Shown: positions 1 through 42,964 of the stretch, piece by piece | Position numbering within the stretch: position 1 is the first letter of the stretch | How the letters are laid out: each line of letters begins with the position of its first letter | Source: Macrostomum lignano | Taxonomy: Eukaryota | Reading direction: 5' to 3' | NCBI GenBank assembly: GCA_002269645.1 | Contig: NIVC01003051.1 | Span: 1-64,000, forward strand | DNA: 64,000 nucleotides | Program-made: the position numbers and the translations under genes | The notes under the pieces: generated by a model | Databases searched by the model: none | What the model saw: the letters and a program-made list of their open reading frames with translations, nothing else | What the model was told of the DNA's origin: nothing

Positions 1-310
1 ATGATACTGCCGCACTAGCACTGGCGAGATAGGCGGCAATGCAAATGTATAGGGAAAAACACTGCGGAGATATGAGCCCTATCTCTGTGCATTGGGGACG
101 GCTAAGCACTGCAGAGATATGAGCTCTATCTCTGTGCATTGGGGACGGCTAAGCACTGCAGAGATATGAGCTCTATCTCTGTGCATTGGGGACGGCTAAG
201 CACTGCAGAGATATGAGCTCTATCTCTGTGCATTGGGGACGGCTAAGCACTGCAGAGATATATGAGCTCTATCTCTGTGCATTGGGGACGGCTAAGCACT
301 GCGGAGATAG
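1..310 (+). repeat. E1 left TIR (partial) with ~5 copies of a 47-bp hairpin-forming unit
   Basis: Unit CACTGCAGAGATATGAGCTCTATCTCTGTGCATTGGGGACGGCTAAG recurs at ~60, 107, 154, 201 and 248. A degenerate second copy of the TIR start lies at 319-432. Confidence 0.93.
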
Positions 311-3683: not shown

Positions 3684-6600
3684 GTTCAACAGTCAGCTTC
3701 AGCAGAGTTGCCCAAGCCTATGATCAATCACTGGAAATACTGAGGCTCAGATCGAGTCACCCAGACACGCTTCCGTCAGAATTTTTTGTCCAAGCTGGAG
3801 ACAAAATTATTGAGGCAGTTCAGCAAAGAATTTCAAGACATCATTACAAAGTTCAGCTAAAGGCGAATATTCGAATGGTCCGAATAAGAGATGGGGAGAT
3901 GCTTGCCGAAGAGGACAGATGGATAAGCTGTAAAATGCAGGCCCTAGACCTAGGTGGTGAAGCAGGCCGTTTAAACAACTGGTTGATTGAGCAGGAGCAG
4001 GAGTTGGAGAGGATCTGTAGTATGATTAATACGAACGGCAGTGGCTGGACAATTAAACAAATTAATTTTCTAGACATCAACCTTGCCAGGTACAATCCAA
4101 TTCGATTTCGCCAGGGCAGAGCCGTTAGATTCAATCTTCCTGCCAGTTTGAAGAACAAAAAGGCTGTTATCAATCCACCGAGCACAGGCAAAGACTGTTT
4201 CCTGTACGCCTGTCTCGCTGCACTGCACAGCGCCGATCCGAAAGTTCAGAAATCGCCCAACAGAATATCCTCTTACGATGAATGGTTGCGTGAGCTGGAC
4301 TTTGCAGAAATCTCCATGCCAGTGAGTGTCGCTGATATCGATCGCGTCGAGTCTAACAATCCAGGAATTTGCATTTCTGCGTTCTCTTGGCAGCAGGGCA
4401 GTGTGACTCTTCTCCGTCGCCGCAAGCATGAGTCAGATGACCGAAGACACCTCATGCTTTTGCTAGTTAAAGACAGCTACGGATCGGAGCACTGGTGTGC
4501 AATTACTAATTTTGACAGGTTAATGAACAGTCGTAATGGTCCCGCCATGAGGAAGTGGTGCACGAAATGTTTAACATCATTTTATAGCAACGAGAGGCTT
4601 CAAGAGCACAGGAACGAATGCAGCATTACTGCAGAAAATCCTGTCAAAGAAACGCTTCCAGTTCCAGGACAGAATGAAATAAAGTTCCGAAACTGTCAAA
4701 ACACTGTCAGTCCACCATTCGTTGCCTATGCCGACCTGGAAGCCATTTTGCGAGCGAACACAGACCCTGCTAACCTGATCTCAAAGCATGAACCATGTGC
4801 AGCAGCTTTTCTTGCAGTGCCTCGTGAAGGCATGACAGGACCTCCGCTTAGGCCAGAAGGAGACATGTACAAGGTCTTTTGCAATGCGGACCCTGATGAG
4901 TGTATCCTTGGTTTTCTCAAATCTCTTGAAAGCCTGGCTCAGGATATATTTCACTGGAACCAGAAGCATAGCCACCAGCCGGCTGACCGATCATCCGCGA
5001 CCGTCATGGATGATTTCAATTCTGCTGAGGTATGTCACTACTGCAAGAAGAACTTTAAAAGTTCTACAGATAAACATTTTGACCACGATCATTTAAATGG
5101 ACAGTACAAAGGTGCAGCATGTCAAGAATGCAACCTGCGAGCACAGCTCCGACGCCGGTTTCTGCCCCTGGTTTTTCACAACTTAGGCGGCTACGACCTT
5201 CATCTTCTACTTTCCACTGCGCTTGGGAGCATGAAAAATTGGAAACTTAGTGTTGTTCCGCAATCATCCGAGCGATACTTGTCACTAAGGGCGGAATTCC
5301 CTGTTGCAAGTTACGTAAAGAACGGAAAAGTTGTGCCAATCATGTTTACAATTCAGTTCATCGACTCGCTCTGCTTTTTGAAGGGAAGTTTGTCCAATTT
5401 GTTTGCTAATCTTCCCGAAGCTGAATGCAAGCTGACAATGCAAATGCTTGAGTCAAGACCACATCTTTCAAGAGAGCTACTTCGAAAAAAAGGGATTTTC
5501 CCATATGATTACCTCACAGGATTTGAGATTCTCGAGCAGTCGGTTTTGCCGCCTAAAGATGCTTTTTTTAATCGACTTTCCGATCGGGGAATTTCCGACG
5601 ACGACTACAATAGAGCAAGAGCGGCATGGGCGGCATTTCAATGCAAAAGTTTGAAGGATTATATGCTCGCCTATCTTGAAATGGATGTAAGGCAGCTGGC
5701 TGACATTTTCGAGACATTCCGACAGGCCAGTCTGAAAGAGGACGGATTGGATCCGGTACACTACTTTACTACTCCTGGTTTGTCTTACGACTCAGCTCTA
5801 AAGTCGACTGGAGTGGTTCTAGAGCAGCTGACTGATGCTGACATGTATCATCTGTTTGAGAAGGGAATACGAGGAGGCATGTCCTTCATTAATGTGCATT
5901 GCGTCAAAGGTAATAATCCTAGCTTGCCAGGTTATGATGATCAGCAAGAGAGTGTAAGCCTCATGCCGATCGATATGAACAACTTGTATGGCTTTGCCCT
6001 GTCGCTTCCGCTTCCATGCAGGGAATTCAGGTGGGTACCGGAACAGGAAATCCAGTTCTGGGACTCCAATCGGTTTCTGTCACTCAATCCAGAAGCCGAG
6101 ATCGCCTACCTTGTTCAACTCGATCTAGAATACCCAGCTGAGATTCACGATTCGACTCAGGAGTTACCGTTTGCACCTGAAAAATCAAAACCACAGCCAG
6201 ATCAATTCTCGCCGTACATGGCCGAACTATGGAAAGAGATTGCTGAACAGCGAACTGGCAATGCTGAAGCTAAGTTTCAAGCAACGGAGAAGCTTCTACT
6301 CACCTGTACCGACAAGGATTCTTACGTAGTTCACAGCACCGTTTTAAGATTTTACCTGCAACACGGAATGCGGATCAAGTGCGTCAAAAAAATGATTTCG
6401 TTCAAGCAGGAAAATATTTTCGCGCCGTACATTGCCAGCAACAATGAAAAAAGAGCTTTGGCAACTTCCGAGTTTGCTAAGGATTTTTACAAATTGAAAA
6501 ACAATTCTCTCTTTGGAAAAACTATGGAGAACGTTCGAAAAAGATGCGATGTTCGAATTTGCACTAACCAGACTCAAGCAGAAACTTGCGCCTCTCGACC

Positions 6601-7333
6601 AAACTGTGCCGCATTCTCGATTATCAATGAGTCGTTGAGCATTTTTCAGCTCAAAAAAGATAAAGTCACGCTTGACAAGGCCATTTTCGTTGGCCAGGCA
6701 GTTCTCGATCTCTCTAAGATGGCCATGTACAGCCTACTATATGACAGGCTCCGACCGCTGTTCTGTCATTCAGACGGTTCCAGAGACATGATGCTTTGCG
6801 GAGGTGATACTGACTCATTTTTTCTAGCTTTCAAGAATCATGATTTAACATCGGAGGTAATCCCGAAGCTTAGAGAGGAAAAAATACTTGACACATCCAA
6901 CTATTCTCGAGACCATCCGCATTTCTCTGAAGAGTTAAAAGGAAAGCTGGGCTGCGTTAAAGATGAATCTGCTGGTGGAATTTACCAGGAGTGGATTCTT
7001 TTGCGTCCAAAACTTTATTCGTTTCTCCCTGCCGAGAATTCGAGTGCAAAGATCAAGAAAACTGCCAAAGGCGTGAAGCAGTCAGTAGTAAGACAGCAAA
7101 TTTCGCATGCGAACTATGTCGACGCGTTCGAGTCCAAGCAAGAGCAGATGGTTGCCATGACAGCGATTGTTTCCAAGAAACACGAAATCTTCACGTCGGT
7201 CATGGAGAAAAGAAGCCTATCGGTGTGGGAGGATAAGCGAGTGTGGCTTAGCAGTAATCGAAGCCTGCCCTACGGACACTATGCGCTGACGCCCGCATCC
7301 CACGATCAGCTGAAGCGCATCCGACTGGTCTAG
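3684..7333 (+). CDS. polB: Protein-primed family B DNA polymerase (pPolB) with an endonuclease VII-like Zn/HNH insertion
   Basis: Frame open 3671-7333. Motifs: ExoI ADLE, FHNLGGYD, FIDSL, KGIFPYDY, YLEMDV, KGIRGG, DMNNLYG (A), KLKNNSLFGK (B), GGDTDS (C), and CHYC..FDHDHLNGQYKGAACQECN. Confidence 0.97.
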
Positions 7334-7915: not shown

Positions 7916-8488
7916 TTATTCAATGGAAAGAACTACATTGAGTAGACGCATGCTATCGGTATGCAACTGATTCAAGGACCGAGCTCCACTGAGAACAAAA
8001 GAGCCGCTGTGAAAAAGCAGACATTTACAAAAGTTTAAATTGAAAATTAAAGCAGAAAAGGATTCTGGTTCATATTCGGCGTTTGGGATAATTGATTTTA
8101 ACATTAATAAGGAAAGTGCGGAATGAACTGGGAGCTGTCCATGAGCAGTAATAGTTTTAATTCGAACACAAATTGTTTGATGAGGCAGCAGTTGAGCCGG
8201 CACTCTCCGATGCAGCATAGCCACGAAGCGACGGGCAGCCCTTTTGGCGTCTGCGTGGGTCTTGGCACCGCAGATGCTCAGTTGCCCAGTAGGGTAGAGT
8301 AGGAGAGTCACTCTGGGAATCCGCATCCGCTTGATGAGCACCCGGGGCCAGACGGGCCGGTAGATCACATGAGCCATGCTGAGAGCCAGTTCCCGTAGAG
8401 GCAGCTGAGCGCCCCTGCCACCATCCAGTCTCAGATCTACTCCGCCAACCAGATTGGTCACTCTTAGGGCTGTAGCTGGTGGGCTCAT
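7916..8488 (-). CDS. Divergent TATA-box-binding protein (TBP)-like protein
   Basis: Two TBP half-repeats. First: TNLVG..., LLLYPTGQLSICGAKTHADAKRAARRF. Second: YEPESFSALIF...LLFHSGSFVLSGARS. These align with TBP NIVS, [37 protein letters not shown] and LIFVSGKVVLTGAK. ATG at 8488. Confidence 0.88.
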   Translation of the reverse strand: MSPPATALRVTNLVGGVDLRLDGGRGAQLPLRELALSMAHVIYRPVWPRVLIKRMRIPRVTLLLYPTGQLSICGAKTHADAKRAARRFVAMLHRRVPAQLLPHQTICVRIKTITAHGQLPVHSALSLLMLKSIIPNAEYEPESFSALIFNLNFCKCLLFHSGSFVLSGARSLNQLHTDSMRLLNVVLSIE

Positions 8489-9007
8489 TTCGATCGTCAA
8501 CTTCTTCACCAAATCTGCTTCTGCCAACTTTACTGCTCGTGTGCCACGGACACTGCTCGCTTCTTAAGTTGATGCAGAACTTTGGCTTAAGCCAACTGTA
8601 GTGCAGCAACGAATTTCTCACTGCACAGCCAGTATCTGAATCTTCAGTCGAGGGTGCTCCCAAATCTTCTAGGTTATAAACCTGTCTTCCAAGCAGCTCA
8701 GTCAGAAAAATCGACTTCCTTTCCCCATTTGACCAGATCGGACCACTGGCAATGCTCAGAATGTCTTCCGCCAGTTCCATGTACGGACGGGTTCCATCAT
8801 TCCACTTAAACTGGTGCAGACTCTTAGATAGCTGTCTGTAGTAAACTCGCATGTCAGGTGAGACTCTCTCCCATGGATACGGAGGTGCGTACACATGGTG
8901 AGCAATGTGGTAGCTCCCCGCTCTGATTTGAACAACTGCCAACTCCTTCACAACAAATTTTTTGCTTGTGCTGTTGCACGGAATCCTTGGAAGTCAATGT
9001 AGTTCAT
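8157..9007 (-). CDS. Polinton accessory DEDD-like exonuclease-fold protein (frameshifted; true 3' end probably ~8550)
   Basis: MNYIDFQGF (ATG 9007) joins KFVVKELAV across a 1-bp loss in T6 at 8958-8963. Later motifs LH.F.W..G, VYNLEDLGAPS and CAVRN. Confidence 0.5.
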
Positions 9008-9107
9008 GATGCAGCTTTCCTTCGAAAATTTCGGAGTCAGTCCACCTTCTTATATACTTTTCTGGCAGGCAATTTCAGCCAGGCTGTGTTGCTCCCGTAC
9101 CCCTTGA

Positions 9108-9728
9108 CTAGACTCTCCTGTTCTTTCTCCAGTTCACCCCTCTGCTGGTTGCCATTTTCTTCTTAACTGATTTACCAACAGCGGAAAGCGGAACATTAAG
9201 CTTTTTCTGCTGCAGAAAATCGATGAACTCGTTCCACCCAACTGGTTCACGCTCACATGGCGAATCCCTCACTGTGTGCTGAATCAAGTCCAGTATGTTT
9301 GAGGAAGGGATTGACGTGCCTGCGATTTCCACCTCCCCGTTTTCACAAACTCGAATCAGCTCTGGATTGGTGGACAGGATCGTCCACAGACTGCGAGCCC
9401 TGGTTTTGAATTTCTGTGGCACCGACTTGCTGATCTTCTCTTCCCAGGTGCTTATCTGGGGTGTCTCTGTTTTCATCAACTTGGCTTCAGTATTGCGTGC
9501 TCCTTCTTTTCCAGCGTGCTTGCGCTTGGCCAGCAAACTTTGCATTGCACTTTGGTACATGGCGGTTTTCACATCTTCTGGACAATCCTCGGCATACAAG
9601 ATGTCATCGCATTTCTTCTGAGCCTGCTTCAAGTCAGCTTCAGTGGTAGTCTCATTTGGCTTCAAATTCTGCATCAACATCTCATACTCTGCTTTAGGAA
9701 TCAGAACCATTTCTGAAAATTTGTTCAT
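9108..9728 (-). CDS. Conserved Polinton hypothetical protein (homolog of E2 45356-46006)
   Basis: MNKFSEMVLIP..EY start and GEVEIAGTSIPSSNILDLI motif; E2 copy has MNKYVVVP and GKTWPGSNIFDLL. Confidence 0.7.
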   Translation of the reverse strand: MNKFSEMVLIPKAEYEMLMQNLKPNETTTEADLKQAQKKCDDILYAEDCPEDVKTAMYQSAMQSLLAKRKHAGKEGARNTEAKLMKTETPQISTWEEKISKSVPQKFKTRARSLWTILSTNPELIRVCENGEVEIAGTSIPSSNILDLIQHTVRDSPCEREPVGWNEFIDFLQQKKLNVPLSAVGKSVKKKMATSRGVNWRKNRRV

Positions 9729-10032
9729 TTTGCTTCTTCTTCTTTACCAGCTTAAGCAGAATCGGGAGTATTTTGATGAAGCCAGCCTTCAACAAGTCTG
9801 TCTTTCTTCTTTTGTGAGTAATTTTTCGAATTATCTCTTTTGACTTTGCAAGAACAGCTTTTTCATCGAGCGAAAACGATAGATTGTTTTGTAAGAGATT
9901 ATGGCAGGCCTCGACAAGAAAATAACGCACTTCTTTTGGACAATTTTTTATCAACAGCCGCTTGAAGCGCACGGTATATTTAGGTGACGCAAGAACCGCA
10001 AAAAGACTTGCATATGAATCAAGCACTTCCAT
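9694..10032 (-). CDS. Small basic virion core/membrane-active protein (homolog of E2 46008-46364)
   Basis: LVEACHNLLQNNL resembles E2 LCELSHNVLRGNI. C-terminal AG|FIKILPILLKL hydrophobic helix. ATG 10032. Confidence 0.65.
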   Translation of the reverse strand: MEVLDSYASLFAVLASPKYTVRFKRLLIKNCPKEVRYFLVEACHNLLQNNLSFSLDEKAVLAKSKEIIRKITHKRRKTDLLKAGFIKILPILLKLVKKKKQNEQIFRNGSDS

Positions 10033-10073
10033 TGCGATGAAAACAATAGCTGATAAAAACAAGCTTCACTTTC

Positions 10074-10719
10074 TTAAGCAAATACAAGATGGGGTCGCTG
10101 GTTGGGCAGAATTCTGGCCCGCACTCGCAGCTCATCGGGAGTTGATGGTGAAAGTCTAGGAACAGGTAGGCTCCCCTGCCCTGCGCGGTCACGTGCTTGA
10201 ACACTGACAGCAGAAAGCCGGGCTTCTCTGTAAAGCACTGCCTGCCCAGTGCTGCAATCTGCAGCTGGTCTCGGGGTTTTTCAAGATAGCTAAGTACATT
10301 ACATTCAAGCTCATTGTTCGCGACTCTTTTCCCTTGAAAAATATATTCTGAGTCAGCATCACCAAAAAGCACGGCAAGTGATGTGCGATTCCTGTGAAAA
10401 AATTTCGCATTGAAGCAGAGTTTGAAGTTTCCTCTATTAAGTCATCGAAAACAACCAGGTCATTGGGCCTAAGTGCTGCCTCGATGTTGGTGGGAAATCC
10501 CTGGCGCAGCTGCACACCTAGGCTGTTCAGTTCTGCATGGCCTGCCTGTGAGATCCCATAGTACCACAGAACTCTGCCAGGCTTCACATCAAACATGACG
10601 TCTCTGTACTGGATCAGGTGTTCGACAAAGGTTGTTTTTCCTGCATTGGTGGGCCCGCAGACAATCATGCAGCTTCCCTGCCTGAGGCGGATATCGTAGC
10701 AAACTTGCTTTTCTCCCAT
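10074..10719 (-). CDS. A32/FtsK-like packaging ATPase (two 1-bp frameshifts)
   Basis: Walker A GPTNAGKT, Walker B VVFDD, LTQNIF..GK.SRTMSLN. Frames rejoin as KNPRD.LQI and HPSTPDELRVRARILP; stop at 10074-10076. Confidence 0.92.
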
Positions 10720-10742
10720 GTTTAATGCATAAATATTAGAAA

Positions 10743-11255
10743 TCACGGACATCTTTTTCTTAAGTTGGCTTCAAACCTCTGTAAGATTCTATCATTCAAA
10801 TGATTTTTCTCATTAGCATGCAAATGCTTCAAAATCCCCTCAAATGACCGATTGAACAGAAACTTTTGATAAGCAAAATAGATGCAAAACATTCCGCATT
10901 TATTAGAGTTAGCACATTGAACTCTGTTTATATTGCTTCGGAGCCAAAAGCCAGTTGTTTTAATCTCTCGAAACAAATTATAAACCAAAGATAAAATTTC
11001 AGGTTCCCAGCCGAGGGAGTTGAACAACTCAATGCGATTTCCTTGCCCAACATAGCACACCACCCAGTGACCAAATGAGCCATTGTGCTGAAGTAGGACA
11101 AAAACAAACTTGTTTTCAAAGGAAATTGATGATCTAAATTTTCTTTTTACATTCAAGGGCAGAGAATTTTTATAGCGCAAATGTAAAGTAACTATGAGAA
11201 ATTTTTGGTAAGGCAAAAATTTTCTGGCGAGATTAAGTAGTTGAATTGCATCCAT
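10743..11255 (-). CDS. Adenain-like (Ulp1/C5 clan) maturation cysteine protease
   Basis: GHWV (His), FNSLG, VQ...SNKCG (Gln, Cys). Confidence 0.88.
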   Translation of the reverse strand: MDAIQLLNLARKFLPYQKFLIVTLHLRYKNSLPLNVKRKFRSSISFENKFVFVLLQHNGSFGHWVVCYVGQGNRIELFNSLGWEPEILSLVYNLFREIKTTGFWLRSNINRVQCANSNKCGMFCIYFAYQKFLFNRSFEGILKHLHANEKNHLNDRILQRFEANLRKRCP

Positions 11256-11260
11256 GTCAA

Positions 11261-12542
11261 TTAAGAGGAATAGTCCAGCAAAAGCTCTCGGTGCTTGGTG
11301 ACCTCAATCAGCGAGTCATACAGGCACATAGCAATCAGGGACACCGCTTCATTCAGAGCCTGTTGGAAGCGAATCTCCAGCCGCAGGTTGCCCTCCTTCT
11401 GTCCGTACCACAGAGCCGCTCCCTCGGGTGTGAGATCGAATGCAAACACCGTGGTGTTGTTGGAGAAGAGCTGGTAGGGGATCCACGGACCGAGTTTGTG
11501 TGGCTTGCAGATTGACAGCTTTTCAGGTAGTGCAAGTATTCTCTTACGAAGGAATTGTTTTCAGGTGTGAAGGCGCCGTGGCACACGGTTTCCCCACCTT
11601 TCTTTAGAGCCAATCGGCTAAGGTTGAAGCTCTGGAACTGTAACGGGCTCGCGTGATGATGACCGTTGAATGCTCGGTGGCTCACGAAGGCCAGCATGAT
11701 GAACTTCGGCAATTTTCCATGAGTGAATCCTTCAATGTTTTTTGACTGAATACCCTGGGGTAGGATGAAGTTCTGCATTTCAGTTCGCTCGATGGGATAC
11801 AGTGCATTTTGGTTTGTCAGCCCCTGCTCATGGGCCAGGCTGATGTGGGGCATCACTTTGACTCGGCGAAGATGCAGAATGCTGTGAGAGATTTCCATTC
11901 GGTATGCCGCGTTGTTTGCATTCGGGGTTCTGATGGCAAAGGCCCCATCGCTGGGACCAGTTTGATGTGCAGGTGCAGATTGCTTAGCAGAAACACTGGG
12001 CACTGGAAAACATCGCTGAAGAGCGGCCCCGCATACTCCATCCATTGGGATTCCCTGTGGCTCTCCGTGTGCTCTTCAGCTGCCGAGTTCGGCTCCAGGA
12101 AGCCAGCAGGGTAAAGTTTTAGTTGCTGGGCATCGGATGAGCTCATTAGTGCTTTGAAGTACGCATGGTAGGGATAGAGCTGGTCTCCACCAGACACCAC
12201 TCGCTGGTTAATGCTCACAATTACATCTGAGAAGGCTGTAGACAGAACAAAATTTTCTGGGTGCACGTCACTGTCTCTGCGCTCGGTGATGATGCCATCT
12301 CCATCTCGAACATCCTCCCTCAGCAAACCCCCATCCAGTCTCACAAGGCGGCAGCGAATATAAAGAAAAGAATTAAGCAGATCTGTATATTCATCGGCAG
12401 ATTGGTGGCAGTCAAATTCAATGGGAGAGTTTGCAACAATGGAATTAACTGGGTGAATATCAACATAAGTAGCTTTTTCAATGCAGGTTTGTAGAACGGG
12501 CGTCTTAAATAAATCAAGTCTGGGATTGAATCCGTAAGCCAT
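11261..12542 (-). CDS. Double jelly-roll major capsid protein (Polinton PY), two frameshifts
   Basis: LDLFKTP, DIHPVNS..SPIEF, LHLRRVKV, ALYPIERT, FNG....PLQFQ, FAFDLTP...GNLRLEIRF, spread over ORFs 11853-12542, 11353-12045 and 11261-11449. Confidence 0.92.
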
Positions 12543-12544
12543 GT

Positions 12545-12922
12545 CTATGACAGAGAGTCGAGCACGCGTTTCACAGTTTTCTTGCTGACTTTTTGCTTTC
12601 GCTTTCCTCCGCCTGCTCTATTCTTCTTTGCTTTCGTCTTCCTATTCTTAAGCTTTTTCCCACTAGCCTTGCTCGACCTCTTACTGCGATTTCCACCAGT
12701 TGCCTTTCGGGTGCCCTTCTTTTTCTTCAATCGTTTCGGACTTGCTTCAGTATTTCTTTTGCGCCTGACGTTGCTAAGCGTCGAGGCTGATGATGATGAT
12801 ATAGCCGCTGGCGGAGGCTGGTATGTCATGATCCCTGGGAAGCTCCCACAGCCATAGAGTGCAGGCTTTTCGTGTCCTGTCCTCACCCCCGAATATTGCT
12901 GGATTAGCTGCTGGTAGTTCAT
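12545..12922 (-). CDS. Lys/Arg-rich core (DNA-condensing) protein with a GxG putative protease site
   Basis: ATG 12922. LYGCGSF followed by a very basic tail. Lies between mCP and MCP, as in E2. Confidence 0.65.
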   Translation of the reverse strand: MNYQQLIQQYSGVRTGHEKPALYGCGSFPGIMTYQPPPAAISSSSASTLSNVRRKRNTEASPKRLKKKKGTRKATGGNRSKRSSKASGKKLKNRKTKAKKNRAGGGKRKQKVSKKTVKRVLDSLS

Positions 12923-13727
12923 TGAATGCGTTTCTCCTGAATTTGAACTGTAAGCAGAACAGGGCTGTGAGTCTGTGCAATCAGTGGGCAACCATAGATG
13001 TCCGCAGCTGAACTCGAATGCTGTGAAGAAGACTGATTCGTTGAATCGGGAAGAATATTGTTTTCTTAAATATTTTTGTTTGATAGTTGCCCCATTCAAT
13101 GCCAGCTTTCATTCCAACTGTTCTCAACAAGGAGCTCCAGTTGCAATTAGTTGACTCAACGATACTGCAGTGCACATTGATTAAGCTGGTGCGCGGGCAG
13201 CCAATGCAATGCTCGGATACGCGGCTCCCTGGCTGGATTTTCACAGCCTGGTTTCCAAATCCCAGCCAATGCAGAATTTTACTAGATGGAAGAAACAGCT
13301 CTGCTCTCGCAGTGTTGTTGTGCACCACAGTTCGTGAGTTGCGGATTTCGAACTTCATACCAAATTCCCTGTTGCCACTACGCCCCATCAGGCCGGACTC
13401 ATCAGCCTCCATCTCAGACTCCCTGTCACTCATTGCATCAAAGAACAGCGAATCAGAGTTGGCCAGCAGCTCATTCAGGCGCTCCACCAGCTCCTCCACT
13501 CTAGCAAAGCGTCCGGGTTGAAGAACCAGGGCCTCATGCTCTCTTCCATCTGAGACAGTGAAGCAGTAAGGCTCGTCAACATTGAACCATGCAGCAGGCA
13601 GATGGATTTCAGCCAGACCTGCCTCATAGTCCACATTTCGATCCAAGTAAATAGGTGAAGGCAGGTAAAAATTAAAGTCACTAGGAGTACCTTCAGCATG
13701 CTCACTGTTAATCAAAATAGTTCGCAT
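12919..13727 (-). CDS. Minor capsid (penton, PX) protein; frameshift near 13010
   Basis: NS...SDFNFYLPSPIYL..YEAGLAEI..P, INVHCSIVES..LLR, HSIRVQL. The alternative frame ADIYGCPL...RIQ* ends at 12919. Confidence 0.85.
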
Positions 13728-13764
13728 TATAATCATAAACTACATGATGAGGGCTGTGCCAAAG

Positions 13765-14835
13765 CTAAACCTTTCTTAAGTCTTTTTCATCCACCCAGCC
13801 AGTCGAGTCGTAGCCCGCCCATTTCACCAGATAGCGAATTTTTCCCTTCCGCTTCTCCGTTTTCAGGATCTTCTCAATCACATACAGCCGCTGTGAGTCC
13901 GGGACAGCCTGCAGCTCGTGCTCATGGAAGAGTCCTCGAATCTCTTGCCCCCGCATGTCTTTAATCTTGTACATGTAGGGATAATGTTTTGGGGCTCTGC
14001 TCACCACGGTGTACACTTCCTCACTCCAGCTCGCTTTGTATCCCTTTTTGAATATCCGTGGAGCATTGGAAATTCTCACTGACTGGTTTTCAGCGAACTT
14101 AGGCTTCTTTAATTTTTCTAGAGTCTCGACTGCTTTTCCATCGTACAGGTTCATCCACACTTCAGATTCATTCTCTTTGCAGACACTAGTGGGTGCCATT
14201 TTGATGCTTCTGTGGTAGGTATTGTTGTAGGATTTTACCAGCTTAGGCAGCACATCAAGCCAGTGCAGTGTGCTCTTGTAGGTGAAGTAGCGCCACATTC
14301 TACTTTTCAGAGTTCGATTCCATCGCTCAATGACAGCTGCCTTCTGCTCGCTGTTAGTTGGGAAAGCCAGAATCCCTCTGTCAATGCAGTATTGACGGAA
14401 AGTGGAGTTGATAAATTCCTTCCCCTGATCTGTGCGAACTGTGCGTGGCTGGCGCTTTGAACTTCTCAGTATGCTCTCGAATGCTGACTTCACTTCTGCA
14501 GCAGATTTATTTTTCAGTGCCTTGGCCCAAGCACATTTTGAGAGCACGTCAATGCATGTGAGAATATATTTGTAGCCTTTATTATGCTTTGCGAATGGAA
14601 TCATTTCCACTAAGTCAAGTTCCCACTGATCATCGATTGCGCGCACTATGATTGGGGCCCTTGGATATCGCCTCCTAGCTGGCTTGTGCAGAGTGTGCAC
14701 TGGCTGCTCGCTGAGCCACTGCTCAATGCTCTTTGCAGATATTCGATCACCTCTTTGCCTCACTTCATGCAGCAACTTTGAGGCACAAGAAAAACTAGCC
14801 GGTTGCTCAGGTTTCAAATAAATTTTCTCCATCAT
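13765..14835 (-). CDS. Retroviral-like (rve) integrase with C-terminal chromodomain
   Basis: DDE triad WELD / TDQGKEF / IERWNRTLK; YVIEKILK...YLVKWAGY. ORF intact. Confidence 0.96.
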   Translation of the reverse strand: MMEKIYLKPEQPASFSCASKLLHEVRQRGDRISAKSIEQWLSEQPVHTLHKPARRRYPRAPIIVRAIDDQWELDLVEMIPFAKHNKGYKYILTCIDVLSKCAWAKALKNKSAAEVKSAFESILRSSKRQPRTVRTDQGKEFINSTFRQYCIDRGILAFPTNSEQKAAVIERWNRTLKSRMWRYFTYKSTLHWLDVLPKLVKSYNNTYHRSIKMAPTSVCKENESEVWMNLYDGKAVETLEKLKKPKFAENQSVRISNAPRIFKKGYKASWSEEVYTVVSRAPKHYPYMYKIKDMRGQEIRGLFHEHELQAVPDSQRLYVIEKILKTEKRKGKIRYLVKWAGYDSTGWVDEKDLRKV

Positions 14836-15155
14836 GGGTTTATCAAGATACGTGCCTATCCACCTGCTCTAGCTGTACAGTATTTTTTCTTAAGTAGAAA
14901 TTTATATTCCAATTAAATGATAGAGAAACGAGTGGCAAATTAATTTATTACTGTCAGATTGAAACCTCTAACATCGTAACAGTCGGTGTATTTTCCGAAA
15001 GCAAACAATCCATAAAAACGAACACTAAAACACTCGCACACCAGCATTTCAGAAATAGCAGAGATAAAAAACAGCATAGTGCCGTCAGGCTGGATAATCA
15101 TGTGCAAGCTAAAAGTAATTTAGTTAGTCCAATGCATTCAAAGCATTCTAGCTGT

Positions 15156-15932
15156 TCAGTTATCAAAGCGAACATTGGGCTGCAGCCTCATCGCGTCCTG
15201 CCGACGAAGTTGAAATGGCAGCTTTCGCTTCCTGCTGCTGCTGCTCACCGTCGAAGCCGCTGCATGCGCCCTGAACTGATACCACACCGGATCTTCCTCA
15301 AGGTTGGTGTCCCGCTGCGGAAGCAGTCCAGCATCAGAATCAACCGAAGGTATCGGTGTGGATGTGATTGGCTCAGTCACAATGCGCGGCCTTGTGGGCG
15401 AGCTAACGTCCTCGTCATCAGCATGATCTCCGCCCTCATCAGTCTCCATTATGGGCTTCGTGTCCTGGTCAGCCTCCAACTTGAGCTTCTTGTCCTCTTC
15501 CTCCTCTTCCTCATCAGACTCCAGCTCGTACTGCATTGTGTTCCTCAAGGGAGCCACCAGCTGACCGTCGATCCAGGAGGCGATTTTCCAGAGCTTCTGC
15601 CACAGCGGCGGAGTCAGTGGTACGGCGTTTCGTCTCAAAAACTCCTCGCAGCAATCTTCCGGCAGCCGTTTGAGCCAAATGATGCCGCCTTTGACTTCCA
15701 CAAACTTATCGAAGCCGAGTTTCACGACCTTGGGCTCGTTGTTGCGTGCAGAAATCACAAGTGAGCGTTTCACCTCCTTCAATTTCTTCCATTGGTGAAC
15801 ATTCAGGTTGAATCCTGGGACGCCTGGCTTCAGACTTGCCGTGCTGCCGTGTCGGTAAAATTTGCGAATAGCGATAAATTTTTGTCCTTCAAACTCCTGG
15901 ACTTGTGCCTTATAGCCTTCACAGATGTCCAT
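15156..15932 (-). CDS. PC4/Sub1-like ssDNA-binding/coactivator protein with two PC4-like units and an acidic/basic tail
   Basis: VQEFEGQKFIAIRKFY...LKPGVPGFNLNVHQWKKL resembles PC4 VRDFKGKVLIDIREYW..MKPGRKGISLNPEQWSQL. A degenerate second unit ends AVPLTPPLWQKL. Confidence 0.8.
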   Translation of the reverse strand: MDICEGYKAQVQEFEGQKFIAIRKFYRHGSTASLKPGVPGFNLNVHQWKKLKEVKRSLVISARNNEPKVVKLGFDKFVEVKGGIIWLKRLPEDCCEEFLRRNAVPLTPPLWQKLWKIASWIDGQLVAPLRNTMQYELESDEEEEEEDKKLKLEADQDTKPIMETDEGGDHADDEDVSSPTRPRIVTEPITSTPIPSVDSDAGLLPQRDTNLEEDPVWYQFRAHAAASTVSSSSRKRKLPFQLRRQDAMRLQPNVRFDN

Positions 15933-16134
15933 TTTCCTTTCGCAATTGAAAACTCACAAAAGTTAAAAGCTGAGGAAAATTTCGGATGAAATTTTGGATT
16001 TGAAAAATTGAGAATTCTTCCTTGTCAATTTCGGGGCTTATATACCCTCGACCGAACCACCCCAAACCACCCATCCCACTCCGGGCTCTGTGATTGGCTC
16101 TTTCGCAAACATTATTTCCAATTACATAGATTAA

Positions 16135-16372
16135 CATCTTATCTCTGCAGTGTTAACCACCCCCAATGCAAAGAGATAGGCCGCCTCTCCTCCTATCTCT
16201 GCAGTGTTAACCACCCCAATGCAAAGAGATAGGCCGCCTCTCCTCCTATCTCTGCAGTGTTAACCACCCCCAATGCAAAGAGATAGGCCGCCTCTCCTCC
16301 TATCTCTGCAGTGTTAACCATCTCCAGTGTAAAGAAATAGGCCGCCTCTTCTCCTATCACTCCTGTGTTAAG
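16135..16372 (+). repeat. E1 right subterminal ~53-bp repeats (variants of the TIR unit)
   Basis: ATCTCTGCAGTGTTAACCACCCC(C)AATGCAAAGAGATAGGCCGCCTCTCCTCCT, about 4 copies. Confidence 0.85.
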
Positions 16373-16389
16373 CAGAGATAGAGCTCATA

Positions 16390-16712
16390 TCTCTGCAGTG
16401 CTTAGCCGTCCCCAATGCACAGAGATAGAGCTCATATCTCTGCAGTGCTTAGCCGTCCCCAATGCACAGAGATAGAGCTCATATCTCTGCAGTGCTTAGC
16501 CGTCCCCAATGCACAGAGATAGAGCTCATATCTCTGCAGTGCTTAGCCGTCCCCAATGCACAGAGATAGAGCTCATATCTCTGCAGTGCTTAGCCGTCCC
16601 CAATGCACAGAGATAGGGCTCATATCTCCGCAGTGTATTTTTCCCTATACATTTGCATTGCCGCCTATCTCGCCAGTGCTAGTGCGGCAGTATCATAATT
16701 CGCCCTACTACT
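16390..16712 (-). repeat. E1 right TIR
   Basis: Reverse complement of 1-310 plus terminal AATTCGCCCTACTACT. Confidence 0.93.
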
Positions 16713-20805: not shown

Positions 20806-23800
20806 TCTAATCTCTCTCTTCATATCTCTAACCTCTATCTCTATCTCTAATCTCCATCTTCATATCTAATCTCTCTCTCCCTATCTCTAATCTCTATCTC
20901 CATACCTAATCTCTCCACCAATCTATATCTCTCTCCACATATCTAATCTTTCTCTTTATATCTAATCTCTGACCCCATGTTTTATCTCTCTTCCTATAGT
21001 TAATTCTCTCTCATACCTAATCTCTCTCCCAATCTCTAATCTCTGTACCTGTGTCCAATGCCTCACTCTGCACAAAGCTATCTAAATCATGAAACCCCAA
21101 TAAAATTATGCAATCACCTGACACTTGAACGGCTTCACTCCCGTATGCGTCACCATATGCTTGTTAACGTCTCCCTTGTCAGCGAATCGTTTCTGACAGA
21201 TCGGACAGGGGAACTGCCTCTGACCGGTGTGGCAGGTCAGGTGTCGGCGCAGATTAGTGTGCTGGTGAAAGCACTTGGCGCAGTAGGCGCACTGGTAGCA
21301 TCTCTGATCCCCTCTGCCGCCTGTCTTCCTCAGCCGATGCACCGACTTGACGTGGTTGGCCAGCAGATGGGATTCAGCGAACGCCGACTGGCAAATGGCA
21401 CAGATGCACGGCCGAGAGAACGACGAGCCGGAGCCGACTCCGACATCATCAGCCATCGGATCGTCGCCATCCTCGTCGCTGGCATCATTCTCGTCGTAGC
21501 CGTCGTCTTCATCGGAATCATCTTGAGCAGACTGGTGCGCGTCCTCTGAGTGTCGTTTGAGTCCAGCCAGGCTGGGGAACCACCGACCACAGCGGGGGCA
21601 CTCGTAACTGCCCGGATGGCTCAACAGGTGCCGGCGTAGTTCAGCTTCATCAACAAACCGACGATCGCACAGGGTGCAACGAGGACCGCTAATATTTTTA
21701 TTACTATTACTATTAGTAGTAGTATTATTATTAAGACTTCTAAGCCGACGCTGCTTCTTTGGAGACGAGCCAGCCTCTTCTCCGTCATCTCCTTGGTCAG
21801 GCCGATCAGTAGTCTCAACTTCGACATCGTCAGCCGACTGTCCGCGGCTGCTGAATTGCAGCAGACGAGAGTCGCGCAGATGGGCCTGACGAACGTGCCG
21901 GCTCAGGTATTCAACACGAGCGTAGCAGTTTCCGCATAGACGGCACTGGAATCGCTTGCGACTGCCTTCGGGTAGAAGCACCAGAGCGCTCTGCAGTGCG
22001 TCGTGTACTGACAGAGGCTCCTGATTAGAATTAGCTTCATCACCTGGTTCCTCATCAACCAGTTCCGTTGGAGCTTTTCTAGGCGAACTGGACATTGCGG
22101 TGAAGCCTTCTTGGGCCGCTACCAGAGCGCGAACCTTGAGAAAAAGAAGACAAAATATTGTTTTTATTATTGTGGTATGTGGCATTAATTTCTTAGCTCA
22201 CGGATTTAGCTTCAGATGTGGCGCAAAATATACCCTACTCTGTATTGTAGCATCAGATTTGGCGCTAAAAATACCCTACTCTCTCTTTCGTAGCTTCAGA
22301 TGTGGCGCCAAAATACCCTACTCTCTCAGTTAGCTGCAGATATGACAGCAAAAATACCCTACACTCTCTCTTGTAGCTTCAGGTGTGGCGCCAAAAATAC
22401 CCTTCTCTCTCTTGCAGCTTCAGATGTGGCGCCAAAATACCCTACTCTCTCTTGCAGCTTCAGATGTGGCGCTTAAAGATACCCTACTCTCTCTTTTAGC
22501 TTCAGATGTGGCGCCAAAAAATACCCTACTCTCTCTTGTAGCTTCTGATGTGGCGCCAAAAAAATACCCTACTCTCTCTTGTAGCTTCAGATGTGACGCC
22601 AAAAATACCCTACTCTCTCTTGTAGCTTCAGATGTGGCGCCAAAAAGTACCCTACTCTCTCTCTTGTAGCTTCAGATGTGGCGCCAAAGATTACCCTTCA
22701 CTTTCTTGTAGTTTTAGATATGGCGCCAAAAATACCCTACTCTCTCTTGTAGCTTCAGATGTGGCGCCAAAAATACCCTACTCTCTCTTGTAGCTTTAGA
22801 TGTGGCGCCAAAAATACCCTACTCTCTCTTGTAGCTTCAGATGTGGCGCCAAAAATACCCTACTCTTTCTTGTAGCTTTAGATGTGGCGCCAAAAATACC
22901 CTACTCTCTCTTGTAGCTTCAGATGTGGCGCCAAAATACCCTACTCTCTCAGTTAGCTTCAGATGTGGCGCCAAAATACCCTACTCTCTCTTGTAGCTTC
23001 AGACTTGACGCTAAAAATATTCTACCTTTCTTGTAGCTTCAGTTGTGGCACCAAGATGTCTTGAAACTTCAGATGTGGCGCCAGATGTGGCTTATGTCTT
23101 TCTTGTAGCTTCAGATCTGACGCCAAAAATACCCTACTCTCTCTTGTAGCTTCAGATGTGGCAGCAAAAATACCCTACTCTCTCTTGTAGCTTCAGATGT
23201 GGCGCCAAAATACCCTACTCTCTCTTATAGCTTCAGATGTGGCGCCAAAAATACCCTACTCTCTCTTGTAGCTTCAGATGTGGCAGCAAAAATACCCTAC
23301 TCTCTCTTGTGGCTTCAGATGTGGCAGCAAAAATACCCTACTCTCTCTTGTGGCTTCAGATGTGGCAGCAAAAATACCCTACTCTCTCTTGTAGCTTCTG
23401 ATGTGGCGCCAAAAATACCCTACTCTCTCTTGTAGCTTCAGATCGGACGCCAAAATCACGGGTCCTCTATAGCTTCAGCCTGATGTCAGAAAAGCAATTA
23501 GAATTGGAAAACTGGCATAGCTAAATTAAAAGACAGGACAAACCGCTAACCTGACTGCCAACGCTATCCGACAATCTTTTAGAAGCGGTTGCAACCCGAA
23601 TAGTCGATATTGGCGCAGTGGAGCTAACGGCAGTTGAATTAGTTGACATTGACACCGGTTTCACAGCCGATCTGGGTATGCTGATAACACAGCAATTATT
23701 TCTTCGTTCCACTGTAATACCACTAGACGAAGTTGTAGCTGTATTGTTAGTAGAACCTACTATGCTACTAACAGTAGCTGGAGTCACTGCACCAACAGAT

Positions 23801-29046: not shown

Positions 29047-29689
29047 CTCTCCCCGTTCAAATAAAGAGGCGGAGTGAAGGCGGAGCGCGCCTTTATTTAA
29101 AAAGGTAAACTGCAGAAAATAAAATTTTGATTGGCAAAAAGGTGGTAACTTTGGCAGAATAGCAGAGAAGGGGCTGGGTTAGGCCCATGATTGGAACCCT
29201 AAACGCGTGTGCGGGGGCGCCTGCCCGCTTGAAGTCAGCGCCTAAATACCGGGTTGCACAAATAACTGCAGCGCCCGTAAAAAGGATGGCAAATACCGGT
29301 AATGGGACAAAAGAAGCCACAGTGGGCTATAAAAGCGCGGCTGGGCGAGGCCGTAGCTCGTACTACCGCCCCATACGGTATTAATGGAGTCACACCAAAG
29401 CATGAAGGGGGGCGCCAGCCCCATGATACGCAAGAGGCGCCTAAATATGGGGGATGCGGGAGTTCATGCAGAGCCCCGGGGGAAAAGGCAAAAGACTGGC
29501 CACAAGGGCACAAATGGTTGATGCCGAAAATGAGCACAAAGGACAAATGCCGCTCATATACGAAGAGGGGAAGTCAACGGCGCGACTGCGCAAAAATTCG
29601 CACGTGCAGCGCAGGGCTGCTGAGGGCGCTAGCAAAAGGGCGCGACGAAAATTGGAGTCACCTGGGGTTTGTCAGTCCAGGGTTTAAAG

Positions 29690-39960: not shown

Positions 39961-40073
39961 CACTCCGAGACAATTACGTCATCCCCCAACCCCCTCTCCC
40001 AAATAAGTTTTCAAAAGGCGTATAGCTATATATATTTACACAAAAAGCCGGCCGAGCTTTGATACGTATATAT

Positions 40074-40724
40074 TTATTTAGCATACACAATTGGGTGACG
40101 ACCCAAAACGTTTGAATAATAGCGAGCAGGAGCATTTTGCAAACAGTTTACAATCAAGTATGAGTAGGGGTCGCGAGTAGCATCCTCATACGTTTTGACA
40201 AAACTTTTTGGATTAGTGGGGACCAGCTGCCTTGCAATATGAGACACTGTGCTGGCATCCCGTATATTGCGGAATAAAACAAGGTAGTTCGAATTGAGCG
40301 ACTGAGTTCGGTGCTCCTTACCCTTTGCAAACAGGTTTTGCACAAGATACCAAAGTCGGAACCCCACGTGGGAGACTTTGCGCGTGAAAAAAGTTGTAAA
40401 AGCGCCACTCTTTTCCATGGCATGCATTTGGTCGTCGACGACAAGCAGAATATTTGGTTCAGGGACATATTGTTCAGGATCAAATGTACACGAACGAAAA
40501 TTTACAGGGTCCGGCAATTCAAACAGTTCAGGATCCGGATAGTGGCCAAACCAGTCTACGCGAATCGGCTTCGGATCTTGAAAAAATTCTTGTCTCAATA
40601 GGTTTTTCACAAGTGTGGTCTTACCGCTTTGAGCCACCCCAGGAAAAATTGCCGACGTTTTGGGGGCAAATTTTAAAGAGTCGGGGTCTATTGTTTGATA
40701 CATTTTGATAGGCAGCCCAATCAT
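40074..40724 (-). CDS. Packaging ATPase
   Basis: GVAQSGKT, LLVVDDQM, QNLFAKGKEHRTQSLNSNYLVLFRNIRD. Confidence 0.93.
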   Translation of the reverse strand: MIGLPIKMYQTIDPDSLKFAPKTSAIFPGVAQSGKTTLVKNLLRQEFFQDPKPIRVDWFGHYPDPELFELPDPVNFRSCTFDPEQYVPEPNILLVVDDQMHAMEKSGAFTTFFTRKVSHVGFRLWYLVQNLFAKGKEHRTQSLNSNYLVLFRNIRDASTVSHIARQLVPTNPKSFVKTYEDATRDPYSYLIVNCLQNAPARYYSNVLGRHPIVYAK

Positions 40725-40726
40725 AT

Positions 40727-41178
40727 TTATAGATGATGCTGCTTTATTTGTAGACAGTGATTCTGCACCATCAAGTCGTTCTCGTAAAGATTTGTGCTAT
40801 AACAGTCGCGCAATATTTTTTCAATTGACAGACCCTCCAAAAAGTGTTTTTCAGCCACAAATATTACATGAGCCCCGCAGGTCACACTTAGCTGATGCTG
40901 TACAGGATGCCGGTTCATGGCCACCTCCACAGGGACACATACTTTGCGATCCACAACTTTAATAAATCTGGCACAGGATCGATACACAAGGGGTCAAAAA
41001 ATGTCACGCTCTCATCGGCATGAAGACAAATTAAAGCCCAGTGAGTGCCTGGTAGATTGCCAGTGTCAAAGTTAATCACGTATGCAGCAGGATAAACAGG
41101 CTGCGGAATCCTGTCAACTGGTGTTACTCGAACAGGGACAGGTAGTATTAGACGTTCTAATATATCTAGACTATTCAT
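40727..41178 (-). CDS. Adenain-like cysteine protease (frameshift ~40930)
   Basis: VINFD..PGTHW, FFDP, VQ...SVTCG. Confidence 0.88.
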
Positions 41179-41226
41179 ATCGGCATGAATATGGTCGTTA
41201 TTCGAGAATAAAAAAGATGTTTGTTT

Positions 41227-42509
41227 CTACACGTAGTCTAGAATAACCTGACGACCGCGAGTGATTTGCACAGTATTGTCAAAGTAGCCAAACACCAACA
41301 CGTTGATTCCTGCGGCCAAGGCAGCAGAAAACTTTATTTGTAGCGTCAGATTCCCTCGCTCGCGAGGCATGCTATGCCCGCCCAGCTCCATGTCGGGCAT
41401 GAGATTCCAGGCGAAGAAGCAGTAGCCAGCTCCATAGTCGGAATATGATACGTCAATATCAGGTCCCGATTCATCTTTCCTAGGCTTTTTAGTAGCATGG
41501 CATACTCGCGAGCATAGTTATGAACACCGAATCGAGGAGTAAACGGTTGTCCACACAGACTGACTCCGTCCTTATACAGAGCGACACTGTCTTCCCCAAA
41601 CGGTTCAAAATTAAACGGGTTATGTGTAGCCACACCGTTGTATGCGCCGCTGTTCACCATGCCAACAACCACTAGTTTAGGCTTTTGTTCAGGAAATATA
41701 TTATTGATTGACATGTCCCGAACACCGCCAGCCACTGAAGTATTGTGCACAACAAGTCGCTCAATCGGATAGATTGCATTCTGTTTGCCTAGTTGTTCTT
41801 CAATCTCCAATGCCAATTGGGGGTTTGCCTTGACGCGGCGCACATGTAGTTTGGCACTCTCGAGCACCAGCCGCGCATCAACCCCGTCCGCTTGGTTTTC
41901 CAGAACGAAGCCGGAATTGTGCATGGTCAGCGTAATTACCATATCAGTGTATGGCAGTAGCATTCGGTCGTTGGTAACAAAAAAGTCTAAACTAAGAGGT
42001 CCATAAAGGTGAAAGGTGCGTGAGTTTGCCGCCATCGCCTTGCGGGCTACAAAGCCAGGATTTCCAACCACAGCCATTTGACCTCCAGCGTCCTTTGCGT
42101 AGCCCATCATTCTCAGTTGGTTGGTTTTTGAATCGTGTCCGTAATTCAAACACGTGCGAATGTAGGCCTTGTAAGCGTGGTTGTTATTGCTCGACTCTAC
42201 GTGTGTCCCGTTGATTGTCAACGTGACGTTTTTAAACATGCTTTCAAGGACGTAATTGACCGGCGCAACATTCGAATCAGCAGCAAGATTTGTGCCATTA
42301 GACTGCCTAACGCGGGCCTTAATCTCGAGGTCAATGTCGTTAAGATCGATAAACGTCTCACCACCAACAATCCTAAATTCGACCACGCTGGCATTTTCAA
42401 CACTGGCAACAGGGTGAACTTCTTCAGTGGTTGCGCTAATTGCAGCAATTTGGTGTGCGCGAGGAGCAAACAGCTCGAATTCCGACTTTGTACACAGGCA
42501 CTCAGTCAT
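41227..42509 (-). CDS. Major capsid protein (frameshift ~41440)
   Basis: KSEFELF..P, HPVAS..VEF, DLNDI, LHVRRVK, YPIER, NPFNF. C-terminus GNLTLQIKF...VILDYV* in the next frame. Confidence 0.92.
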
Positions 42510-42632
42510 TTTTCTTTCAACAGCGGCTTAGTGTGGTGTTCTAATAGACAGATCAGTTATTGGCACGGGTTTTTTTATTTATAGAGTCGAAAATATCAGA
42601 ATGCTGCAGTCTTTTTCTCGTTTTTTTGTTAG

Positions 42633-42920
42633 TCATTTTCTTCGTCTTTGTCTGCCGCTACCTCGTTGTGCGACTGTGTCCTTGAAAGCATCTTTAGCTG
42701 CCTGGACAGAGTTACGCAATGCCGCTTCTTTCAAGTTCCCGCCTTGATCGAGTGTGTCGCTAACTGTTGTAGCTAGGGCTCGTGTTCCGTGGCGAAGAAT
42801 ATTTTTGCCAAAACTCTTTAAAATTGGCAGGGCAAATCGGGCAATGCTGCCAAACAGGCCGTTGCCGCGCTGTGCACCGGAAAATACCGGTAAAGCTCCT
42901 CCGATCAAGATTGAAGGCAT
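42633..42920 (-). CDS. Small basic core protein with GxG protease sites
   Basis: QRGNGLFGSIARFALP...QRGSGRQRRRK. Confidence 0.75.
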   Translation of the reverse strand: MPSILIGGALPVFSGAQRGNGLFGSIARFALPILKSFGKNILRHGTRALATTVSDTLDQGGNLKEAALRNSVQAAKDAFKDTVAQRGSGRQRRRK

Positions 42921-42964
42921 ATTGTCGATCAGTTGCCACCCTTTATTCGTGAAAACTTCTTTAT

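Follow-up and report, generated by a model that had tools for sequence, protein, structure and literature searches.

Late genes of the beta- and gamma-herpesviruses are served by a virus-encoded protein that folds like a TATA-binding protein (TBP) (BcRF1/ORF24, a part of the vPIC), and a non-canonical TATA is the apparent sole cis element before their capsid and assembly genes (PMC4893493). Here we describe a comparable arrangement in a 64-kb window, the whole stretch of DNA analyzed (contig C3051), of the 764-Mb Macrostomum lignano assembly that was searched. Bases 1 to ~16,700 of the window are a Polinton, element E1, recognized by its inverted repeats and gene content, which encodes a TBP of its own and repeats the word CTTAAGAA, more generally YTTAAGAA, upstream of its virion and integration genes. 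From the sequence, we consider this putative, conserved set of family-specific TATA-variant promoters in a TBP-encoding Polinton to be real.

Both systems have a virus-encoded TBP-fold protein and an altered TATA box that seems to be their only cis element, with host RNA polymerase II assumed, but the herpesvirus box is TATT whereas here it is YTTAAGAA and varies between families in one genome; moreover, the E1 TBP is a stand-alone protein of 190 aa and E1 is an integrating Polinton. No herpesvirus family corresponding to the six vPIC proteins was found among the Pfam matches of the E1 open reading frames (ORFs) scanned, a search that remote homology may escape. The analogy with the herpesvirus TATT promoter, drawn in an earlier sequence-only reading of this DNA, thus holds for the way of working and not for membership, there being neither TATT nor vPIC partners in Pfam. 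In the herpesvirus system the viral TBP binds its box and expression depends on DNA replication. We regard the E1 system as a putative variant of the viral-TBP late-promoter strategy.

Polintons, Mavericks or adintoviruses (Starrett 2021, PMC8502044) share with E1 the terminal inverted repeats, protein-primed DNA polymerase B (pPolB), rve integrase and adenain and, probably, the packaging ATPase and capsid genes. In that paper "TBP" is a gene label in the Fig. 5 legend, on related MELD viruses, and the word "promoter" is absent. The main texts of the Polinton papers searched yielded no animal Polinton promoter motif or mention of TATA; TBP annotation may well stand in supplements and figures, which lay outside this search. 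Virophages and Polinton-like viruses (PgVV, 10.1101/2022.07.28.501842) have promoters in common with giant viruses; in such a small Polinton-related genome, too, many genes are preceded by a short motif at no more than 150 nt, which implies separate transcripts. There the motif, either AAAATTGA or the late motif of the helper, comes from a helper virus that has a polymerase of its own, whereas the E1 motif is TATA-derived and its candidate reader is encoded on the element. Large dsDNA viruses have divergent two-lobe TBPs proposed to serve viral genes (Ravarani 2020, PMC7221094), but these have diverged at the residues that contact TFIIB and are often accompanied by a viral TFIIB, while the element TBPs keep both acidic residues. 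In yeast, the TBPm3/TGTA box pair illustrates how a few substitutions on the DNA face shift the accepted box, with Pro191 tied to T at position 1 (PMC1636458); TBPm3 is a laboratory mutant, whereas pairs of this sort in the elements would have arisen in nature and would concern positions 1, 6 and 7.

Box sites in E1 and their conservation

CTTAAGAA occurs seven times in the window, once on the plus strand at 18235, outside E1, and six times within E1 on the minus (coding) strand, starting at 8561, 10071, 10757, 12645, 13773 and 14887, exactly the positions and strand reported by the sequence-only reading. The sites and their variants are listed below, with spacings measured from motif end to ATG.

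14887..14894, minus strand: CTTAAGAA box in non-coding DNA, 51 nt before the integrase ATG
13773..13780, minus strand: CTTAAGAA box in the last integrase codons (Leu-Arg frame), 36 nt before the first Met of the minor capsid protein (mCP)
13063..13070, minus strand: TTTAAGAA box at the 3' end of the minor capsid gene, 140 nt upstream of the basic core gene
12645..12652, minus strand: CTTAAGAA box within the core gene, in a Leu-Lys frame and 102 nt upstream of the ATG of the major capsid protein (MCP)
10757..10764, minus strand: CTTAAGAA box at the protease 3' end, 37 nt before the second Met of the ATPase (10719)
10071..10078, minus strand: CTTAAGAA box 38 nt before the 112-aa ORF; its TAA is the ATPase stop in L035 and L036
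9160..9167, minus strand: GTTAAGAA variant ~150 nt before the DEDD-like ORF, absent from the sequence-only reading
8561..8568, minus strand: CTTAAGAA box ~400 nt into the DEDD-like ORF and 72 nt upstream of the TBP ATG

Five of the six CTTAAGAA sites thus lie in coding DNA or at its end, and the protease and 206-aa genes have no site. The second Met of the ATPase is used as its assigned start; its first Met is just 4 nt from the 10757 box. Spacings of 72, 38, 37, 102 and 51 nt agree to within 1 nt with those given before, while the 46 nt previously given for mCP fits the Met three codons on rather than the first.

As a raw count, CTTAAGAA is not significant in the whole window (7 observed against a shuffle mean of 3.74; 7 of 100 shuffles reach 7). 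It is, nevertheless, the best 8-mer within 150 nt upstream of 6 of the 10 E1 genes, and none of 5000 random window sets reached six with any 8-mer. The same clustering test on the related copies L032 and L036 gave 5/10 genes each (p 0.0008 and 0.0002, respectively). That the recurrence is unlikely by chance therefore stands for position and strand and fails for the raw count.

Conservation, proposed earlier as a check, was counted in five of the six E1-family stretches (the E1 copy, L032, L034, L035 and L036; 74-92% nucleotide identity); L033 was left out because DNA of other origin replaces its integrase and minor capsid region. Of 35 sense matches to YTTAAGAA in the five copies, 34 have an annotated start no more than 150 nt away, the lone exception belonging to a gene whose start was not entered; the antisense count is zero, and the minimum distance to an assigned start is 31 nt. 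Of the eight TTAAGAA words in E1, five show no change across the five aligned copies, compared with 12.8% of all 7-mers, and identity in 5/5 copies includes the boxes at 13773, 10757 and 8561 as well as the weaker 13063 variant. The other weaker variant of the sequence-only reading, CTTAAGCT at 9750, did not survive the comparison, as L032 and L036, the most distant of the copies, do not have it. Upstream of the integrase the flanks cannot be aligned, yet TTAAGAA is found 31-51 nt from the ATG in every copy (31-34 nt in L032, L034, L035 and L036). The box of the DEDD-like ORF has moved: L032 and L036 lose GTTAAGAA and carry TTTAAGAA 50 nt upstream of the ORF.

Coding constraint fails to explain the motif, which is found in three reading frames (Leu-Arg, Leu-Lys and stop codon) and in non-coding DNA. 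In addition, TTA-AGA codes 3 of the 17 Leu-Arg pairs of E1, against 0.52 expected, and all three are at box sites.

The genes around these sites, and the other features of E1, are as follows.

1..309, plus strand: left terminal inverted repeat; the window begins within this arm, and the partner arm is at ~16373-16696
3875..7333, plus strand: protein-primed DNA polymerase B (PF03175, E 2e-12), without family box
7916..8488, minus strand: element-encoded divergent TBP, 190 aa (Pfam PF00352, E 7.9e-25)
8157..9007, minus strand: DEDD-like ORF overlapping the TBP start; frameshifted in the window copy, 281-283 aa open in sisters
9108..10032, minus strand: 206-aa and 112-aa ORFs belonging to no known family
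10074..10752, minus strand: packaging ATPase with Walker A; frameshifted in the window copy, Pfam AAA matches weak (E 0.02-0.03)
10743..11255, minus strand: adenain-type protease (PF00770, E 7e-5)
11261..12542 (3' end approximate), minus strand: MCP; frameshifted in the window copy, 427 aa open in four sisters
12545-12922, minus strand: basic core gene, named by position and composition, no Pfam match
12981-13736, minus strand: putative minor capsid gene, named by position and composition, no Pfam match
13765..14835, minus strand: rve integrase with chromodomain (PF00665, E 3e-13; PF00385)
15156..15932, minus strand: PC4-like gene (PF02229, E 5.5e-8), without family box
16037-16044 and 16093-16097, minus strand: TATATAAG and CCAAT, respectively, a host-type promoter candidate of the PC4-like gene, read by eye from the sequence

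The Polinton hallmarks found in E1 are the terminal inverted repeats, the protein-primed PolB, the rve integrase and the adenain protease. Two other traits of the group are a packaging ATPase, represented in E1 by a Walker A gene with weak Pfam matches, and double jelly-roll capsid proteins, for which E1 has candidate genes that match no Pfam family. pPolB is on the plus strand, and the remaining genes form a minus-strand block in the order PC4-like, integrase, minor capsid, core, major capsid, adenain, ATPase, two ORFs, DEDD-like and TBP. Several genes frameshifted in the window copy have intact frames in sister copies. The MCP has homologues and no Pfam family, and its name comes from gene order and the sequence-only reading. 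The repeat arms are 96-98% complementary, and the element ends contain arrays of 47-nt and 54-nt repeats (55-309 and 16137-16640) that could be origins or protein-binding sites. The PC4-like protein has an acidic tail and is possibly an early co-activator or a single-stranded DNA binding protein. No Pfam match to RNA polymerase subunits was found among the 23 ORFs scanned, nor to TFIIB among the E1 ORFs scanned.

The DEDD-like ORF has no Pfam match and owes its name to our reading of an N-terminal motif. It directly precedes the TBP gene in E1, in family 2 (L031) and in the metagenome contig L044. A protein atlas places it near eukaryotic clusters without a name (0.91-0.93) and near Maelstrom (0.88), recognition being below threshold, a weak lead towards a piRNA-pathway-like nuclease.

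Boxes and TBPs of other Polinton families

Each Polinton family examined has a box form of its own: YTTAAGAA in E1, YATAAGAR in L031, TATAAATA in E2, TATAAG[CTG]A in family 4 and TATAAACR in L044. The family-by-motif table is almost diagonal, and this, with the equivalent placement of the sites, places CTTAAGAA in a series of TATA variants, each specific to a family. The motif had been called element-specific; a private variant it is, and "family-specific" is the correct term.

The element E2 spans ~39,280-49,480 of the same window and provides a comparison set:

40724..46424, minus strand: TATAAATA boxes of E2 at ~46417, 46121, 45353, 44167, 42962, 42576 and 40724, before 7 of 8 genes
46505..46983, minus strand: very divergent TBP-like gene of E2, frameshifted here and open in L038 and L039; 73 genome matches

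TATAAATA is found upstream of 7/8 genes in E2 and 6/8 in its relative L038 (p 0.0002 each). E2 (39283-49475) has inverted repeats and integrase, capsid, protease and ATPase genes, with no PolB in ~10 kb, and is possibly a non-autonomous element; its upstream region contains a duplicated block (~47750-47990 and ~48440-48710). The upstream ORFs of E2 are preceded by TATATAA boxes, read by eye. Together with the TATATAAG and CCAAT elements of the E1 PC4-like gene, these boxes suggest a class of host-type early promoters. Between E1 and E2 are a host C2H2 zinc-finger ORF (21106-22185, minus strand) and an apparently recent long terminal repeat (LTR) retrotransposon (~27986-38256), with identical direct repeats ~9.5 kb apart and gag, protease, reverse transcriptase and integrase ORFs on the minus strand.

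In family 2 (L031, 38% TBP identity) the orthologous site at the minor capsid 3' end is TATAAGAA, compared with TTTAAGAA in E1, which fixes the register of the motif. Family 4 was found via a distant capsid query and fetched afterwards. There, TATAAG[CTG]A precedes 6 of 9 virion-block genes, and the best 8-mer with one mismatch is found in 8 of 9 genes (p 0.023). Its stretch L060 (G000:C424:416700-425500) has a gene order unlike that of E1, a dUTPase-like ORF and a small ORF that resembles, by eye, a phospholipase A2 core protein. The stretch L059 was too decayed for testing. In the metagenome contig L044, where a TBP gene is also present, 4 of 5 genes are preceded by TATAAACR. Several metagenome Polinton-like contigs have CTATAAAC[AG] at equivalent places, and CTATAAAC precedes 12 of 16 starts in 6 of 14 contigs, a test that is illustrative only because the six were picked for showing the motif and are partly interrelated. 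A conserved capsid peptide, xINV, at the MCP 3' end (L043-L048, L051) is encoded as TATAAA[CT]G, and the next gene follows after ~70-100 nt; this DNA could double as a promoter for the protease.

Divergent TBPs are encoded by all four Polinton families of the genome. In E1, PF00352 is matched in two stretches, as in the two-repeat TBP saddle fold, and the predicted model (pLDDT 78) matches the solved TBPs 1mp9, 1ytb and 1cdw (TM ~0.75-0.8). The E1 TBP has 152 genome matches, 25 of them full-length at 100%, in subfamilies from 100% to ~75% plus the 38% family. Pfam or profile matches were also obtained for the TBPs of L031 (E 6e-19), L038 (E 6.7e-5), L060 (E 2e-11) and L044 (E 1.5e-15), while L039 has no Pfam match; a TBP-like frame is present in 2 of 14 short metagenome contigs. 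The host TBP is separate and fully canonical, and a TRF2-like gene is likewise separate and ordinary. In families 3 and 4 the TBP genes have no family box upstream. Their TBP-like frames (46505-46983, minus strand; L038, L039; L060 ~3742-4296, minus strand) lack an ATG before the first strand; for the L044 TBP (~3960-4512) the first strand is seemingly in another frame; such frames may use a splice, a non-ATG start or a frameshift.

A homologue search with the E1 TBP gave five close proteins, two labelled Macrostomum lignano, and a profile search gave few element-like proteins (P0004, P0032, P0035, P0037) before passing directly to cellular TBPs. Viral contigs scanned with TBP and MCP alignments gave no match. 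Given this outcome, the evidence on host range beyond this genome comes from L044, from L049 and from proteins without a name. In the TBP tree families 1 and 2 are joined (99/98) and long branches meet; the tree is equally compatible with one origin of all element TBPs and with several.

In yeast TBP numbering, the E1 protein keeps F190, F207 and N69, has Tyr for F116 and Thr for N159 and V161, and is unaligned at F99. As the four intercalating Phe and the Asn69/Asn159 pair are incomplete, it is a divergent and not a canonical TBP. Every element TBP has N159 and V161 changed, F190 and E188 kept, and an acidic residue at 186 (Glu or Asp across families; both 186 and 188 are Glu in E1). Two acidic stirrup residues contact TFIIB (PMC7221094), and their retention makes recruitment of host TFIIB a fair inference. 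At three residues that contact DNA, the changes follow those of the box, a suggestive pattern. Pro191, which disallows all but T at box position 1 (PMC1636458), is lost in E1 and L031, where boxes often start with C, and kept in family 4 and L044; it is also lost in family 3 despite a box starting with T. A C or G at position 7 clashes with Leu-72, which is 114 in yeast (PMC13566119); Leu114 is retained in families whose box has A at that position and substituted in all three that do not. Val122 is Ser or Thr in exactly the three families with G at position 6. We also considered whether Pro191 had been exchanged for a proline at the place of Ala100, with TBP orientation reversed as a result, but gave this up as the stretch aligns unreliably.

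Readers of the boxes

A TATA box lies ~30 nt before the transcription start. Compared with the strict consensus TATAWAWR, CTTAAGAA has mismatches at positions 1, 2 and 6. It is strand-specific, stands at least 31 nt from the assigned ATG and occupies places where other families have plain TATA variants, which gives good support to the earlier proposal of a non-canonical TATA; the YTTAAGAA boxes are very probably promoters. Contigs from four runs cover genes and spacers evenly, with neither joints nor stacked ends, and are neutral as to transcription starts and expression. Preferential reading of the family boxes by the element TBP is a claim that we make with less assurance, thinking it somewhat probable. 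This lower grade reflects a binding rule that admits CTTAAGAA, the plain TATA of E2 and the lack of discrimination by the Epstein-Barr virus (EBV) protein. The viral TBP named as reader in the sequence-only reading is a genuine TBP, carried in some form by all four families and suggestively covarying with the box, and it remains a plausible reader of a box that a wild-type TBP could also bind.

Several points weigh against preferential reading, and some against the promoter set itself. A structure-based rule for boxes bindable by wild-type TBP, N[AT][ATC][AT][AT]NNN (PMC13566119), is satisfied by CTTAAGAA; as E2 uses an ordinary TATAAATA, host TBP may suffice. The MCP site in L032 and L036 is CCTAAGAA, outside this rule. 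The EBV protein BcRF1 binds TATA and TATT alike in vitro (PMC4893493). With Asn159, Val161 and probably Phe99 changed, the E1 TBP may bind DNA poorly or differently. The covariation is only suggestive because it involves five families, two of them sisters, and the link of Val122 with position 6 is argued from the two-fold symmetry of TBP. In family 2 (L031) the motif is not significant (exact 8-mer p 1.0; one mismatch p 0.95) and the sites are degenerate; family 4 is borderline, with an exact p of 0.064 over 13 genes (C424) and no significance in L058. Sites 100-140 nt upstream require longer leaders. Finally, the motif patterns were defined after the data had been seen, from the same sequences.

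Could the boxes be true promoters that host TBP/TFIID reads as deliberately weak TATA variants, the element TBP being, for example, a decoy, a host shut-off factor or a general TATA booster? Much is compatible with this: wild-type TBP accepts the box, with G at position 6 fitting the cavity (PMC13566119, PMC1636458), E2 uses TATAAATA, the host TBP is fully canonical, and the TBP genes of families 3 and 4 are behind no family box. We nevertheless judge it unlikely, as it leaves unexplained why 4-7 separate sites per family, several of them coding, are held to one private variant, why new non-coding sites take the family form rather than the TATA consensus, and why the contact residues show the pattern they do.

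Baculovirus late promoters are TAAG initiators read by a viral RNA polymerase. The sequence-only reading had pointed to TAAG within the motif, and an initiator of this kind, or a site for the PC4-like or DEDD-like element protein, could also draw on the facts that the element encodes a PC4-like protein, that the DEDD-like ORF precedes the TBP gene also in L031 and L044, and that some boxes of other families are 13-21 nt from the first ATG. This is improbable: none of the 35 matches is closer than 31 nt to an assigned ATG, as fits a site near -30, no polymerase subunit was found among the 23 ORFs scanned, and the equivalent boxes of two families, TATAAATA and TATAAACR, have no TAAG; on the last two grounds a baculovirus-type late promoter was rejected. 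An RNA signal, whether one that marks the 3' end of the upstream gene or a branch or acceptor site used in trans-splicing, which is known from the host, Macrostomum lignano, would suit the several sites within 15 nt of the upstream stop codon, the pyrimidine run and AG before the next ATG in some copies (L035 integrase, 112-aa ORF) and the TATAAATA sites that continue into AATAAA. Such a signal is still less credible for a TBP site ~400 nt and an MCP site ~100 nt before the stop of the containing gene, an integrase site ~260 nt past the previous stop and 3' flanks that are mostly purine-rich, and the equivalent motifs are TATA boxes. The remaining idea, that basic Leu-Arg or Leu-Lys C-termini and a TAA stop create the word by chance, can appeal to the whole-window count, to the five of six sites that are coding or at a coding end, and to family 2, which keeps its integrase-end site 4 nt before the next first ATG, probably driven by the protein. 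This explanation is largely refuted, and we give it next to no weight, by the three frames and non-coding sites, the codon test, the best-of-any-8-mer null and the recurrence of the word before the integrase amid unrelated flanks in 5/5 copies.

On balance, we moderately favor embedded RNA polymerase II promoters for the virion and integration genes, read preferentially by the element TBP, as the explanation of the boxes.

A possible late-gene switch

If YTTAAGAA is the version of the TATA box used by the E1 Polinton family, each integration or virion gene would have a minimal RNA polymerase II promoter within the 3' end of the preceding gene, and the two genes without a box would be read from an upstream promoter. 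An early host-type promoter (TATATAAG and CCAAT) may drive the PC4-like gene, and weak reading of CTTAAGAA by host TBP could make the first element TBP. Since the element TBP gene lies behind such a box, positive feedback would follow. The element TBP would bind the family box more readily than host TBP and, having kept the two acidic residues, would bring in host TFIIB and RNA polymerase II, with transcription starting ~25-30 nt downstream of the box. The outcome would be a late-gene switch.

More tentatively, and short of calling it probable, we suggest that in every family of animal Polintons a private pair of TBP and TATA box has co-evolved, one small viral protein redirecting host TFIIB and RNA polymerase II to its own virion and integrase genes, self-amplifying in E1 and preventing cross-activation between families in one genome. 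Under a cognate model of this kind, the E1, L031, E2-family and host TBPs would prefer diagonally among CTTAAGAA, TATAAGAA, TATAAATA, TATAAGCA and TATAAACA. Co-evolved pairs would constitute a minimal late-gene switch that needs no helper, and their TBPs a naturally occurring series with altered specificity; these natural variants could serve to study how TATA positions 1, 6 and 7 are read. The viral-TBP late-promoter strategy would then extend from herpesviruses to an unrelated virus group. For the flatworm, the analysis offers exact promoter candidates, a candidate regulator and a two-tier model, host-type early and family-type late, that bears on whether animal Polintons are self-sufficient viruses and on how the expression of their capsid and integrase genes is timed.

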